Source: a virus (lineage: Duplodnaviria; Caudoviricetes). Taken from it: a DNA stretch of 57,735 bases. Shown here in pieces: positions 39,838-44,672 of the stretch. The notes beneath the pieces were generated by a model that saw only the letters and a list, made by a program, of their open reading frames with translations, made no database searches and was not told the origin of the DNA. The stretch covers positions 1-57,735 of IMG/VR virus record IMGVR_UViG_3300017575_000049; one strand, written 5' to 3'. The position numbers were made by a program, and so were the translations under genes. Position 1 is the stretch's first letter. The number at the start of each line of letters is the position of its first letter.

Positions 39838-40263
39838 CTATAGTCCGGGATGTCGACCTGGGTCAGCAGGGTGTGGCCGACGTGCCTCACCAATAAGCTC
39901 GGATAGCTCAAACAGCTGTTTTGTGTCACTATTACCGACATAAATCGGCATGTCATCACAGAACTGGGCAATGGTATGCTGACAGATACCACATGGGGCA
40001 ATAGCCGAGCGGGTGTCATCCATATCCGCATGGTAAATAGCCAGTCGGACGAACTCGTCTGCACCGGCCTCGATAGCCTTGAACACAGCTAACTGCACTG
40101 CATGGCACGCACGGTCACCATCCACCGCAATATCGACGCCCGTGTAGATGCCGTACGTGGTCTCAAGGGCACACCCAACCGGTTGTGCTGCGCTGGGTGC
40201 AGACGCATTCTTCTGCGCTTGGTGCGCTCGCCCGATGAGTCCGATAACACTGGTCCCCTTCAT
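39838..40263 (-). CDS. Cytidine deaminase-fold protein, catalytic Glu absent
   Basis: VGCAL...YTG, HAVQ in place of HAE, and PCGIC. Confidence 0.8.
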   Translation of the reverse strand: MKGTSVIGLIGRAHQAQKNASAPSAAQPVGCALETTYGIYTGVDIAVDGDRACHAVQLAVFKAIEAGADEFVRLAIYHADMDDTRSAIAPCGICQHTIAQFCDDMPIYVGNSDTKQLFELSELIGEARRPHPADPGRHPGL

Positions 40264-41087
40264 CAGATATCCCGTCGTTTCATGACCGGCAGTGGGTACC
40301 AGCTGATTGGTCGTGTCCCAACAATGTCACTCACCAATCGGTTCCACGCCGATGGTCGGGTATCCAGGTCCGTACAGTGGATACCCCAGTTGTCTCGGCG
40401 AAGCTTGGGGCCGATGTTCGACCCGGTATCAGGGTCGTACAGGCGGTCGCCTCGTTCGAAATAATCGGTAAACTCCTCCTTGTACGCGATGCCATCAAAG
40501 TCAACCTCCAGTGGAAAGTGACGCTCGGCATAGTCAAGCAGCCGACTTCGAAAGACATCGTCGCCATCTATCTCATCCCACGATTCGGTGTCCTCCCACT
40601 GGTCCAGGTCCAGGTCCTCCTCCAGCCGAAGCTTACTCAGCAACACCGGAGCATCGTCGTGAATGTGGTCATATATCTCCTCACGAACCGCTAACCACTG
40701 GTTCCACGGCTTTGTCTTCTTGATGTCCATATCGACAGCCAGCGGGACCTGGTCACCATCATCTGTTACAAGATACTGCAGGTCACCATCATCGGTCTGT
40801 GTATACTCACCATAGATGCGCCAGTCAACGGCCGAGTCAATATCGAAGTAATCGTACAGCAGCTCTGAAAACGCGACTTCTGCCATCTTTCCTTCGACGC
40901 GAGCATTGACAAACCGACTGAATCCGTTGCTCCCACCTCGCTGGTCCAGTCGCTTCGTCGGGGTTGACCCGTCCCACCACAACTCCATCCCGTGTCTGAT
41001 GGCGATAGGCAATGACTCGCGACCGACGGTCACCGTCGGCTCGAACAGCATCCCGGCATGAAATGGCCGACTGGGATACTGACTCAT
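40263..41087 (-). CDS. Putative restriction-endonuclease-fold nuclease
   Basis: GKMAEVAF...DDGD...DIKKTK motif. Confidence 0.5.
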   Translation of the reverse strand: MSQYPSRPFHAGMLFEPTVTVGRESLPIAIRHGMELWWDGSTPTKRLDQRGGSNGFSRFVNARVEGKMAEVAFSELLYDYFDIDSAVDWRIYGEYTQTDDGDLQYLVTDDGDQVPLAVDMDIKKTKPWNQWLAVREEIYDHIHDDAPVLLSKLRLEEDLDLDQWEDTESWDEIDGDDVFRSRLLDYAERHFPLEVDFDGIAYKEEFTDYFERGDRLYDPDTGSNIGPKLRRDNWGIHCTDLDTRPSAWNRLVSDIVGTRPISWYPLPVMKRRDI

Positions 41088-41626
41088 GTGCCCACATCTC
41101 TGTCACTGACCGATTCAACACGGTGCATTGGGCGCGGGCAGATATCAAGCGCCATCGTCTCCGGCTGTGTGGATGCATCGGGCGCATCCAAATCCAGGTC
41201 TGCAGCAACAATATCTACATCTCGTCCACTGCGAATGTATGCATCAACGATGTCCCGCAGATAGTCCATCATCGAAACTGAGAGCCCAGATATTTCGTCA
41301 GTGTAGACGATAACAAAATCGATCATCGAATAGTCCTCGTGTGCCACCGCAGCGATAGGGTCAACAAGATGCTGTCCTGCATCAACCTCTGACAGGATTC
41401 GACTCACCCGCGACTCGACTGCCTCATCACCGCGCGCACTGGTCCCAAACGTTACGATTGTCGTCTCGTATCCATCAACTCGTACCTGCTGTGCGACTCG
41501 AATCGATGTTCCGCCTGTCTCGGTCTGGGCTGCAACGACTTCGACCGGGAGCGTTGTGTGCTCATATCTGGCCCCATGCTCAGTCTCGACCGCCGTCCAC
41601 GATTCGCCTGACGACACCTTCATCAG
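41084..41626 (-). CDS. Hypothetical protein
   Basis: Acidic ORF with ATGA overlap into the next gene; start uncertain. Confidence 0.5.
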   Translation of the reverse strand: MMKVSSGESWTAVETEHGARYEHTTLPVEVVAAQTETGGTSIRVAQQVRVDGYETTIVTFGTSARGDEAVESRVSRILSEVDAGQHLVDPIAAVAHEDYSMIDFVIVYTDEISGLSVSMMDYLRDIVDAYIRSGRDVDIVAADLDLDAPDASTQPETMALDICPRPMHRVESVSDRDVGT

Positions 41627-41683
41627 TATATAATGTGATATGTTTCCACTACAGATAAGTGACTCGGCACGCATACAGCAAGT

Positions 41684-42682
41684 GTGAGTAGTGAGCCGAC
41701 TCCGTTAGCCCACCTGCTATCGTATCGATGTCCGTCGGATGGGTGTCAGAAGATTTTCCCCGACCAGCAGCGCGCCATTCTCCACGCCCGGACCGCACAG
41801 GGTGCTGGACACAGCGATGCACGGATGGACAGCTGGCTGCTGACACAGCTCCGTCGGTTTGCAGACTGCCTGGAATCGGTACCCACCCAGCGCACGATTG
41901 ATGCAATATCTATGCTCCCCTCAAAGAATACCTACACAACCTCATTCGGGAGCTGGAACAATGCACTCATCGAGGCGGGAATGATTCCACAGCGCTCGAT
42001 TGCCACGCCAGCGGTACTGGTCGATGAGCTACAGCGTGTCGCCGAGACGACCGACCGACAGCACGTCCGACGACTCGATATCGAGCGACATGGCAGCTTC
42101 AACCCGAGCACCTATCTCAACCACTTCAATAGCTGGAAGCATGCACTTGAGACAGCCGGGCTCGAGTACAACAACGTCGACACAGTCTCCAGAGCAGAAC
42201 TGCTCACGGCACTTGACGAGGTAGGAGAACACGTTGGGCACGTCCCTGGTCCCACCGATGTTGCCCGACACGGTCGATTCTCACGCAAGCCGTACCGCGC
42301 TCGCTGGGACAACGGAGTCTGGGGCGCAGGCGTGGATAACGGCTGGGAGTTCCTGACAGACAGAGTCCGTCGGCCCAACACGTACGGGCGTGATTCGTAT
42401 CTGGAGCGGATGAACAACGACTGGGACCGCCTTCGGGTCACCGTGGTGAGTCGGGATGAATACTGCTGTCGGGTCTGTGAGACAGATGCGGAAGACGATG
42501 GTGCCCGCCTTGAGGTACACCACATCGACCCCATCTGGCGTGCCGAGGGTATCCTGTCGTACGGTGACGCAGATAGGTTAATCACGCTATGTTCGACATG
42601 TCACCGGTGTCTCGAAGGAATGTGGCCTGATGCCGATGTCAACGAGTTCGAGGCACTGGCCAGGGAGCACTACCTGCTCTGA
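41684..42682 (+). CDS. HNH endonuclease with C2H2 finger and three associated repeats
   Basis: CPSDGC...H, FGSW-type repeats, and RDEYCCRVC...LEVHH...LITLCSTCH. Confidence 0.85.
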   Translation: MSSEPTPLAHLLSYRCPSDGCQKIFPDQQRAILHARTAQGAGHSDARMDSWLLTQLRRFADCLESVPTQRTIDAISMLPSKNTYTTSFGSWNNALIEAGMIPQRSIATPAVLVDELQRVAETTDRQHVRRLDIERHGSFNPSTYLNHFNSWKHALETAGLEYNNVDTVSRAELLTALDEVGEHVGHVPGPTDVARHGRFSRKPYRARWDNGVWGAGVDNGWEFLTDRVRRPNTYGRDSYLERMNNDWDRLRVTVVSRDEYCCRVCETDAEDDGARLEVHHIDPIWRAEGILSYGDADRLITLCSTCHRCLEGMWPDADVNEFEALAREHYLL

Positions 42683-42685
42683 GCC

Positions 42686-43699
42686 TCAGAGATCACGTCC
42701 CTTCAGGTGGCCACGTCGGCTCTCCTCTTTCTGTTTTTCTGTCCGAGCATCGTAATGCGTCTCCAGCGTGCGGAGTGATACCGACATCCGGTCGCTCACG
42801 ATATCCTTGTCCACATCCTTCCGGAGATGATTGGTGATGGCAGACCGACGGAGTGGGTGTGCGCTCACCGACCCCGGACACTTGGTCTCACCACCCGAAC
42901 TGGTCGCCTCACACTCCTTCTCATCGCGGTCCCACGGACACTCGACACCATACTTACAGGGCCGTGTCGCGCGGTACACAAGCTTGCTGACCGACTTGTA
43001 GTGCATCCGTCCGTGCGAGGTGGCGATAAGTGGCGCACGTTCGTACTCGTCGGTGACAGCTGGGCGTTGCTCTGTCACCCAGGCATCCAGTGCGTGGGCC
43101 AGTTGGTCGTTGGTCACTCCAATGACCCGCGACGCATCTGACCCGCCCTTGATACTGGTACCAGAATGGGGTCGGTGCTCGACAGTCAACGTCCGTTCAT
43201 CCGGATTCCAGTCATCAACATCAAGGGCCATCAGGCCCGACCGGCGGAGGCCAGTGTGGTATAATATGTGTACCACGATATGCGTTCGAGAGGCGAACTT
43301 GTAGTTGGCCAGATACTCGATAATACGAACCATCTCATCGTGTGGTATCATTGTATCCCGAGCCTCGTCAGATTTTTTCAGCTCCGGAACAATGACCGAC
43401 TCACCAATGCCAACCGTTGGCTCGACATGGCCGGTTGTCTCCAGCCACTGGTAGTACTTCCGGAGCGTGTAGAGCGCATTCTTCACCGTGGTAAGCGCCC
43501 AGTCCTTCTCTGCTACGAGATAGCTCTTGTACGTTTCTGCATGGTGTCGCTGCAAGGCATCGACCGTCTCGATGCCCTCTGATTCGGCCCAGGACTGGAA
43601 CGTGCCCAGTCGATACCGATGTTCATCGACCGTCTTCGGATTCAGGTCATGTTGTGCGGTACAGTATCCACGTATCGTGTCTTCTATTGTCTGTGACAT
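42686..43699 (-). CDS. int: Tyrosine integrase (haloarchaeal SNJ2-like)
   Basis: TGLRRS, K, HPLRR and THYD catalytic motifs; Cys-rich insert CKYGVECP; alternative start 43708. Confidence 0.92.
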   Translation of the reverse strand: MSQTIEDTIRGYCTAQHDLNPKTVDEHRYRLGTFQSWAESEGIETVDALQRHHAETYKSYLVAEKDWALTTVKNALYTLRKYYQWLETTGHVEPTVGIGESVIVPELKKSDEARDTMIPHDEMVRIIEYLANYKFASRTHIVVHILYHTGLRRSGLMALDVDDWNPDERTLTVEHRPHSGTSIKGGSDASRVIGVTNDQLAHALDAWVTEQRPAVTDEYERAPLIATSHGRMHYKSVSKLVYRATRPCKYGVECPWDRDEKECEATSSGGETKCPGSVSAHPLRRSAITNHLRKDVDKDIVSDRMSVSLRTLETHYDARTEKQKEESRRGHLKGRDL

Positions 43700-43740
43700 A
43701 TGCGACATCGTGATGCACTGATGTCGGGGGTGCCATCGGA

Positions 43741-44027
43741 GCCGGTCTGGTCATTGCTGACCTCCCAACCTCGGTCTGGACTCGTCACTGTCGAGTCAAG
43801 CGGTACCACCGTTGGGCTCCGGACCAACCAGGGGCGGAGTCGGGCAGACCAGGGCGGTCTCAGCGGTGACACCAGCCACTGGGCATGCACACACTTCGAG
43901 AGGCCCCGTCCTGCCGAGCGTGGCGAGGCAGGGCTCGGCGGGCTCGCGTCAACCGCGAGTCCGCAGGCCGGGTTCAAATCCCGGCGAGTCCAAGCCGAGA
44001 TAGGGAGGTCAGCAATGACCAGACGGC
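43741..44027 (+). ncRNA. Structured tRNA-like element closed by a ~45-bp inverted repeat
   Basis: Outer arms 43741-43786 and 43983-44027; multiple internal helices with G-U pairs on + strand; T-arm. Confidence 0.6.
43968..43992 (+). other. Probable attP core: 3' end of a tRNA (tRNA-Ala-like)
   Basis: CCGGGTTCAAATCCCGGCGAGTCCA next to the integrase; matches my recollection of the haloarchaeal tRNA-Ala 3' end. Confidence 0.7.
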
Positions 44028-44201
44028 GTCGGCGTGACCACGCATAACCGGGATAGCCAGCGTGCGAGGGGACCCATGTCCACTCGAACGCCACACCCCC
44101 GGTACTCCAATGCATCACGATACATCCGACGTCGATACCCAATCTCTTATATTTACCCCGGAGAGCGGAAGTTCTGCCCGGTTAGCCCAGACAGCGTACC
44201 A

Positions 44202-44370
44202 TGCAACAGGGGAGTGGTCGTGCAACAGGGGAGTACTACGGGCCGACCGACCCCGTACACGCACACGTGCGACAGTGTTCAGGCCGACTGGAGTGCCGTA
44301 ACACTACTCGAAACTTCTTTATATATAAGTTTCGTATACGTGCGACAGTGTTCAGGTCGACTGAAGTGCC
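44202..44370. repeat. Direct repeats (14 bp x2, 33 bp x2) around an AT-rich palindrome
   Basis: TGCAACAGGGGAGT at 44202 and 44221; 33-mers at 44265 and 44338 (31/33 identical); CGAAACTT-N10-AAGTTTCG between them. Confidence 0.85.
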
Positions 44371-44672
44371 TCGAACGGTTCGAGCGCGGTAATCGAATCC
44401 AGAACTACCTCGGTCCGGCCAAACGGCATCGCATACGCGTCGGTCGTGTATCCAACATCATCGACCACCAGCAGGCTGAACGAGGCACTCGTGGTCTGAA
44501 CCGTATAGCAGGTCAGCAACCGCATATCTCGCGACCGATTGAGTATCCCGAACTCCTGGGCGAGATGTACCCCCTCACCAATTGAGAGTATGTAGTCGGC
44601 AATCCCGGACGGCATCCGCGACGTCCACTCGATATCGGACAATAGGTCCGACACAGCAAAGCCTGCATTCAT
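44352..44672 (-). CDS. Hypothetical protein
   Basis: 106-aa ORF; start uncertain. Confidence 0.4.
   Translation of the reverse strand: MNAGFAVSDLLSDIEWTSRMPSGIADYILSIGEGVHLAQEFGILNRSRDMRLLTCYTVQTTSASFSLLVVDDVGYTTDAYAMPFGRTEVVLDSITALEPFEALQST

Follow-up and report, generated by a model that had tools for sequence, protein, structure and literature searches.

Positions 43741-44027 of the viral DNA analysed here (the entire 57,735-nt IMG/VR record IMGVR_UViG_3300017575_000049, hereafter the window) are, as judged from sequence comparison, most likely the viral attachment site (attP) of a temperate tailed halovirus that inserts into a host tRNA-Ala gene. The core of this site is identical at 25 of 25 positions to the last 25 nt of real haloarchaeal tRNA-Ala genes, and consists of an intact T arm (CCGGG TTCAAAT CCCGG, 43968-43984) followed by CGAGTCC (43985-43991) and A (43992). 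The tRNA-Ala(GGC) genes used for comparison came from the haloarchaeal loci L048, L058 and L050, and then from L104, L106, L107 and L111. The initial annotation of this DNA, which had proposed a haloarchaeal tRNA-Ala match, was borne out by the fetched genes at all three places it concerned, i.e., the 3' end (25/25), GAGAGGCCCCG (11/11) and GGCATG at 43882-43887, which matches the anticodon loop of tRNA-Ala(GGC) (6/6). Its proposal of an integrase-linked attP with a tRNA-Ala 3'-end core, in a region derived from a tRNA-Ala(GGC) gene, is likewise supported. Since the 3' part of the tRNA-Ala(CGC) gene of L109 is the same as that of tRNA-Ala(GGC), the targeted isoacceptor cannot be named. By analogy, the crossover would take place within the last 14-16 nt or so of the core (43979-43992). 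The CGAGTC motif within the core is found three times in 43700-44060, compared with 25 times across the whole 57.7-kb window.

The core is located 260-284 nt upstream of the start codon of an integrase gene, on the opposite strand. The integrase has a Phage_integrase domain (Pfam, E = 7.2e-11) and a SAM-like N-terminal domain (E = 7.8e-8), and is 32.6% identical to the integrase of SNJ2 (Saline Natrinema sp. J7-1 virus 2) over residues 6-335, or 97% of the query (E = 1e-47). Its identity to integrases of other haloviruses is 31-37%, and it has 37 homologues at E <= 0.001, of which those named are haloarchaeal. Among 22 aligned integrases, R155, R179, K187, H284, R287 and Y319 (a numbering not mapped to SNJ2) are invariant and conform to the R..K..HxxR..Y pattern. 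According to the available text of two papers, an SNJ2-type integrase is one with at least 30% identity to the SNJ2 integrase over most of its length (PMC5861418, PMC8371274). By identity and domain content, the window integrase is therefore a member of the SNJ2 family.

The relatives of this integrase that we gathered comprised the best 80 of 191 loci in haloarchaeal genomes, six metagenome loci and nine IMG/VR loci. A strict T-arm pattern, namely a tRNA 3' fragment no more than about 600 nt upstream of the integrase start and on the opposite strand, was found in 18 of 85 related loci, of which some 14 read as real tRNA 3' ends (Ala, Val, Phe and Tyr-like); a looser reading adds more. The integrated state could be seen in one relative, on a Natronorubrum chromosome (the complete genome G001, locus L017), where an intact tRNA-Ala(GGC) gene and a partial copy beside the integrase gene lie 41,496 nt apart in direct orientation. 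The two junctions (attL and attR) have a 16-nt core, TCCCGGCGAGTCCACT, in common, and the sequence that follows the partial copy (attR) has a homologue directly behind an unoccupied tRNA-Ala(GGC) gene in another genome (G002). By this layout, the 41.5-kb element is a provirus with attL and attR. The junctions and the flank homology together place the crossover 3' of the spacer described below, in the 3'-most part of the tRNA, and therefore the spacer belongs to the element. Core repeats flanking an integrated element, one of the criteria for an SNJ2 module, were seen only for this relative.

Other arrangements were also observed among the relatives. In two loci with more distant integrases, an intact tRNA-Ala(GGC) gene (L048:7055-7126 and L058:6051-6122) lies about 100 nt past the integrase stop codon, which is an SNJ2-like layout and the opposite of that in the window. 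Upstream of the integrase in L016, L098 and L100, at least three copies of the core (TCCCGGCGAGTCC) alternate with inverted copies within 400 nt, which suggests repeated integration or tandem modules at one tRNA-Ala locus. A blastn search with 43400-44400 gave no match to a phage, and its plasmid matches were confined to an unrelated 42-nt element at 44295-44337.

The integrase-proximal (P) arm of the attP appears to contain the remainder of the tRNA. Positions 1-47 of tRNA-Ala are collinear with 43814-43905, best in the part from the D loop to the anticodon loop, and only one of 500 shuffled tRNAs scored equally; the reverse strand and three control segments were unremarkable in the same alignment (149-327 of 500 shuffles). 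The stems of this copy no longer pair, and the D and anticodon arms have not been maintained. Downstream of it, an 11-nt block (block 1) is followed by a spacer that is rich in GCGAG and CGAG, contains GGGCTCG twice and CGAGTCC once, and forms the helix GCGGGCTCGCG/CGCGAGTCCGC at 43938-43948 and 43954-43964.

The order of block 1 (GAGGCCCCG...), a spacer of 28-110 nt and (A)TCCCGGCGAGTCCA was found in eight Ala-targeting elements, each beside a related integrase (the window, L017, L097, L021, L022, L132, L151 and L152; block 1 of L022 differs by 1 nt). The same split layout, made of tRNA-Val pieces, was found beside a related integrase in L018. A blind pattern search for block 1, 30-120 nt and the core in 401 haloarchaeal genomes matched 53 of them. 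Six contain split copies (G001, G002, G308, G187, G350 and, doubtfully, G202), most of the other matches being the approximately 90-nt modules discussed below, and all three further genomes that were examined from this search have an adjoining integrase 36-45% identical to that of the window. The point at which the spacer is inserted varies, being in the 5' strand of the T stem, in the T loop, or in place of most of the T arm. The spacers are not mutually alignable, and MAFFT gave no usable alignment of the P arms of five elements except for L017 with L097; the spacer in G001 is not a repeat within its genome. In all six elements tested, the region from block 1 to the core folds better than shuffled sequences on both strands (z = -1.7 to -4.5), and four spacers, as judged by eye, bear a pair of GCGAG-type words at a distance of 9-10 nt. 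The spacer is absent from three Ala-type relatives (L019, L096 and L099), which carry a contiguous tRNA fragment of 33-35 nt instead. In IMG/VR, two gapped patterns for the split layout and a pattern of a hairpin plus a T arm each matched no contig.

The attP is enclosed by a pair of long inverted arms (Table 1), as the initial annotation had described. Positions 43745-43784 and 43985-44024 are complementary at 90% over 40 nt, 200 nt apart, and when one 1-nt gap is allowed, the pairing extends over the full arms with a score of 61, which none of 500 shuffled sequences reached (mean 16.5). Of the four mismatches, one is a wobble on the + strand and one on the - strand. The 7-bp pairing of GGACTCG (43778-43784) with CGAGTCC of the core, and the smaller local hairpin that competes with it, were also found as annotated. 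The left arm is located 33-76 nt upstream of the integrase ATG.

Table 1. Coordinates of the features discussed in the text (positions in the window unless a locus is named).
Feature	Position	Strand	Basis
attP core, 25 nt (T arm, acceptor 3' strand and discriminator of tRNA-Ala)	43968..43992	+	identity to fetched tRNA genes
Block 1, GAGAGGCCCCG (anticodon-stem 3' strand, variable loop and T-stem start of tRNA-Ala)	43898..43908	+	11/11 match
Decayed D-loop to anticodon-loop part of tRNA-Ala(GGC) copy	43860..43887	+	collinear alignment
Palindromic spacer, 59 nt, two hairpins (43908-43934 and 43938-43964)	43909..43967		repeat, fold and spacer comparison
Left (P-side) arm, inverted copy of the last 8 nt of the core and 36 nt of P'	43741..43784		repeat search and shuffles
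Right arm, 3' end of the core and P'	43985..44027		repeat search and shuffles
Small palindrome GGACTCG-N7-CGAGTCA, inverted and direct copy of the core CGAGTC motif	43778..43798		inverted-repeat search
SNJ2-type tyrosine integrase, 340 aa (transcription directed away from the site)	42686..43708	-	Pfam and SNJ2 identity
Host modules	L121-L150, e.g., L134:1500-1601	-	pattern matches behind tRNA-Ala

The approximately 90-nt modules, which make up most of the matches in the 53 genomes, are located behind tRNA-Ala(GGC) or tRNA-Ala(CGC) genes, sometimes in tandem (L140, L141 and L144). In each, the core is followed after about 36 nt by the core in inverted orientation (GTGGACTCGCCG), then by a short hairpin and finally by a second direct core copy; a simple pattern detected the inverted copy in 21 of the 27 modules fetched. 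The order of inverted core, hairpin and core resembles the P arm of the window in miniature. In an alignment of 29 modules, 11 of the 12 hairpin pairs have changes on both sides, and one-sided (G-U) changes are absent. The number of cells with changes on both sides was 67, compared with 23.7 +/- 3.3 after shuffling (0/500), a control that overstates the significance because the 29 modules are mutually related; the covariation score was 0.263, slid partners giving no more than 0.119. The lack of wobble pairs suggests a palindrome that is kept in double-stranded DNA. The modules may be gene-less remnants flanked by att sequences, or non-autonomous elements.

We favor, with a probability of about 0.6, an attP that acts at the DNA level and has functional accessory elements. 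The identity of the core, the layout among relatives, the split site of G001 and the recurring spacer are shown by the sequences, and protein binding, directionality and any role of the arms are inferred. The integrase would carry out recombination between the 3'-most stretch of the core (within 43979-43992) and a host tRNA-Ala gene whose 3' end has the same sequence. The host tRNA would thereby be remade from its own 5' part, the core and P', and the integrase gene would come to lie at the far end of the provirus, together with the left arm, the spacer and what is left of the tRNA copy, as attR. The P arm would descend from a full, virus-borne copy of tRNA-Ala(GGC), the 5' two-thirds of which decayed, and a GCGAG-rich palindromic spacer now parts block 1 from the core. 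The palindromes within the spacer, like the additional CGAGTC copies in direct or inverted orientation, may be accessory binding sites or architectural elements. With their help, an integrase lacking a separate arm-binding domain would assemble on attP and distinguish it from the host site (attB). The 44-nt arm pair, which lies before the integrase gene, may have arisen by duplication of the core/P' junction in this lineage, and its two copies would be united only in the episome. Judging from the 41.5-kb element of G001, integration would carry the right arm to the opposite provirus end, which supports the earlier proposal that the outer arms part upon integration.

Several observations weigh against this interpretation, or against parts of it. 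An integrated copy, a junction read or a host of this virus was found neither in the contigs of four saltern metagenome runs nor in the 401 haloarchaeal genomes. The extended 5' tRNA remnant was significant in two of 11 Ala-type P arms, those of the window (2/500 shuffles in a repeat run of the alignment) and L151 (0/500), and not in the others (61/500 for L021 and 151-446 of 500 for the rest). GCGAG was observed 10 times in the 678 nt of the spacers, where 1.1 were expected, and in six of the nine spacers, but the background was mixed, including the less GC-rich window, and the excess may partly reflect GC-rich palindromes. CGCAG and GAGCG are likewise enriched, and these words also form the middle of the core. 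As for the arms, the best inverted match of P to core plus P' in G001 was 10 nt long (TCGGGTGATT; reached by 31 of 500 shuffles), no such match was found in G002 (296/500), and the inverted copy of the core is perfect in the window only, among 12 Ala-type elements. Therefore, the arms cannot be a general requirement, and by these comparisons, only this virus lineage has the 44-nt arm pair.

The main alternative is that the 3' core alone is functional, and that the palindromes, the extra core-like pieces and what is left of the tRNA copy have no role, being evolutionary debris that remained after a tRNA was captured and tandem att remnants had recombined repeatedly. Tandem core copies or remnants are common by these integrases and tRNA-Ala genes (L016, L098, L021 and L152), and the unalignable spacers of different lengths and insertion points, the spacerless relatives and the lack of conservation of the long arms and the 5' tRNA remnant would all be in keeping with such an origin. 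However, random decay does not predict that the insert is always found between block 1 and the core, that it is palindromic in each element tested, or that GCGAG-type words are common to most spacers, and the analogous hairpin beside the core in the host modules keeps its pairing via compensatory changes. We therefore regard debris as an unlikely explanation, albeit one that deserves to be taken seriously. Inverted repeats that flank about 200 bp beside a tyrosine recombinase gene resemble invertible promoters, and the 40-nt arms could thus be termini for recombination or transposition of a 287-nt cassette, either an invertible DNA switch or a miniature inverted-repeat transposable element. 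This is extremely improbable. A single orientation, without strand-change joints, was seen in the contigs of all four runs, although contigs can hide rare forms, and no clear target-site duplication was seen in the window. The arms are present once in the record, with no further copy; an 18-mer from them occurred in IMG/VR only in two unrelated contigs, both matches reading as a ribosome site plus ATG, and the matches in 12 of the 401 haloarchaeal genomes (each with two or three mismatches) were fewer than those of a reversed control (about 60). A repeat family was rejected on the same grounds.

Two further alternatives place the function in RNA. The initial annotation favored an expressed, expanded tRNA-like noncoding RNA from the + strand, of about 215 nt (a 62-nt mini form at 43931-43992 with G3:U70 could also be considered), whose outer stem would exist only in the excised genome and which could be a decoy, an integrase cofactor or a state sensor. 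The 287 nt do fold very stably on this strand (-180.5 kcal/mol, z = -10.0, with none of 200 shuffles as good), by 10.8 kcal/mol better than on the - strand (-169.7 kcal/mol, z = -8.4), but since both strands fold extremely, most of the signal is DNA palindromy and not the structure of one strand. Of the internal helices that had been listed, GTCCTGCC/GGCAGGGC and GCGGGCTCGCG/CGCGAGTCCGC are present, and CACCGTTG/CAGCGGTG are complementary but lie outside the minimum-energy fold. The statement that all G-U pairs favor the + strand was too strong, given six such pairs on + and four on - in the predicted folds of the window. For the spacers of nine elements, the + strand folds better in four, the - strand in three and the two are within 0.4 kcal/mol in two, and G-U pairs amount to 19/313 on + and 19/309 on -, so that neither energy nor G-U pairs show a strand bias. 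In the window, the + strand owes its advantage to tRNA-Ala acceptor copies (GGGCTCG with CGAGTCC) that have inherited their G-U pair. These copies also correct the view that the G3-U70 identity pair has been replaced by A-U, as an acceptor 5' strand of the G3:U70 type exists twice further in, at 43931 and 43940. ARAGORN found no tRNA gene in the window, and no Rfam family reached its gathering score, with no match to the tRNA model at E <= 10. The best match was to mascRNA-menRNA (RF01684) at 43931-43991, which includes a G3:U70-type acceptor strand and the discriminator A and is below threshold (27.9 bits against a gathering score of 42.5, E = 0.0026). The acceptor-like complement GGACTCG is 7/7 in the window only, among 12 Ala-type elements, the other 11 having 5-6 of 7, which a fraction of 0.15-0.98 of random segments match. 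In addition, TTCGAGGGGTTTATCTATTCCCG, a promoter block located about 30 nt before all four Natrialbales-type tRNA-Ala(GGC) genes (L048, L058, L106 and L111), has no counterpart upstream of 43778 in the window. With the anticodon and D stems decayed as well, nothing in these comparisons supports such an RNA, which we consider improbable; the absence of variant letters around the attP in two variant strains (see below) would be in its favor, weakly. Alternatively, transcription of the episome from the right, either from a TATA-rich palindrome at about 44318-44330 or from the - strand genes that run leftwards from 44672, could pass through attP into the integrase gene. A 287-nt 5' leader would then be present only before integration and would set integrase expression according to the recombination state, making it a 5' counterpart of the sib retroregulation of lambda. 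Most genes to the right are encoded on the - strand and directed towards attP, one of them specifying a regulator; the - strand also folds extremely; and integration would remove the right arm from in front of the integrase gene. Nevertheless, the arm pair is unconserved in the relatives, and we regard such a leader as distinctly improbable.

The DNA-level attP favored here can be compared with several known systems. A lambda-type attP is long, with arm sites and bends, and its int gene is subject to sib retroregulation. The window is similar in having possible accessory sites on both sides of the core and in that integration would part a structure from int, but its integrase consists of SAM-like core-binding and catalytic domains only, and its repeats resemble the core instead of a distinct arm consensus. 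With tRNAs and tRNA-like RNAs (RF01684 and viral tRNA genes) it shares true descent from tRNA-Ala, an intact T arm, the acceptor 3' strand and the discriminator, and it differs from them in its decayed D and anticodon arms and in failing ARAGORN and every Rfam gathering score. The SNJ2-type modules, as far as the available text describes them (Wang et al. 2018, PMC5861418), have the same integrase family, haloarchaeal hosts, a short core that is the 3' end of a tRNA, and an integrase gene beside attP. In the subgroups described there, the att core is located downstream of the 3' end of the integrase gene (48 bp in subgroup I), in contrast to the window and its nearest relatives, in which it is upstream of the 5' end on the other strand. 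For SNJ2 itself, a pleolipovirus, that text describes only a 14-bp core and two helper proteins (PMC5861418), and it does not mention a decayed tRNA copy split by a palindromic spacer; in the window, the module is carried by a tailed virus that encodes a family B DNA polymerase and a ribonucleotide reductase. In integrative pleolipoviruses, a real coding sequence crosses attP, between the genes for the integrase and a CxxC protein (Dyall-Smith et al. 2021, PMC7911831, in the text available). There too, integration interrupts a feature that is intact only while the genome is circular, but the frames that cross the attP of the window read as non-coding. A model that ties the disruption of archaeal tRNA genes to integrating elements (Sugahara et al. 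2012, PMC3293823, likewise from the available text) also deals with integrative elements and with tRNA sequences that inserted DNA interrupts; here, the interrupted copy is on the element, in its P arm, and the host tRNA is intact, as in G001.

The attP of the window is thus a known kind of object with an integrase of a known family, and fails as an RNA discovery. Nonetheless, it places an SNJ2-type module in a large tailed halovirus and exemplifies an attP that probably began as a virus-borne tRNA gene. The recurrent layout of a leftover tRNA block, a palindromic spacer and a short core bears on how archaeal integrases that have no arm-binding domain separate attP from attB and set directionality. 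Three of these traits (an att site upstream of the integrase gene, an origin from a full tRNA copy, and a recurrent palindromic spacer) are not described in the available text of the SNJ2 literature, although published tables of att sites may already list upstream ones, and, judging from titles, none of the papers found to combine an attP, a pseudo-tRNA and an integrase is about archaea. A more speculative idea, which we hold to be rather doubtful, is that attP in this SNJ2-type branch is a structured DNA (inverted core, palindromic hairpin or hairpins, core) that would replace the arm sites and bending proteins of lambda by means of cruciforms or symmetric protein sites. The 44-bp arms, present as a pair only in the episome, would add a signal of the recombination state before the integrase gene, and the approximately 90-nt host modules would be gene-less copies of attP, possibly mobilized in trans.

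With regard to its carrier, the record is listed as linear and 40% complete. Genes for a family B DNA polymerase (PolB), a ribonucleotide reductase and a baseplate J protein are found to the left of the att site, and a helix-turn-helix regulator gene is found to its right, from which it follows that the virus is a tailed halovirus and that the site lies in the middle of viral DNA. P, core and P' are contiguous among these viral genes, and the window therefore represents the episomal form. The contigs of all four saltern runs, which belong to one study and two of which may be the source of the record, cross the att site with no break or alternative joint, contigs being data in which starts, ends and rare junctions or inversions are invisible. 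In two variant strains, the 778 nt at 43514-44291, attP included, contain no variant letters, in comparison with 19 variable places in 40000-43513, five of which are at 43412-43513 within the integrase gene; this is a weak signal, as the latter density predicts about 4 variants in the 778 nt and about 1.5 in the 287 nt. An HNH endonuclease gene (41684-42682, + strand) with three "homing endonuclease associated repeat" units adjoins the integrase gene on the other strand. The two frames that span attP (43684-44142 on the - strand, 152 codons, and 43700-44047 on the + strand, 115 codons) are probably non-coding, as they are rich in R, W, S and P, have few acidic residues and match neither Pfam nor PHROG. 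A 183-aa frame at 44034-44585 is also doubtful, since two variant strains lack 73 nt inside it. To the right of attP, two 33-nt direct repeats (at about 44263-44295 and 44336-44368) enclose the TATA-rich palindrome (cgaaacttctttatatataagtttcg), and the variant strains from two of the runs (X3 and X4) are missing exactly one repeat unit of 73 nt (44292-44364). The 42-nt piece at 44295-44337 is 83-100% (mostly at least 90%) identical to unannotated DNA in 38 haloarchaeal plasmid records, in one of which it is located about 1.2 kb from an orc4 gene, and 44263-44368 may be a promoter or an origin-type element.

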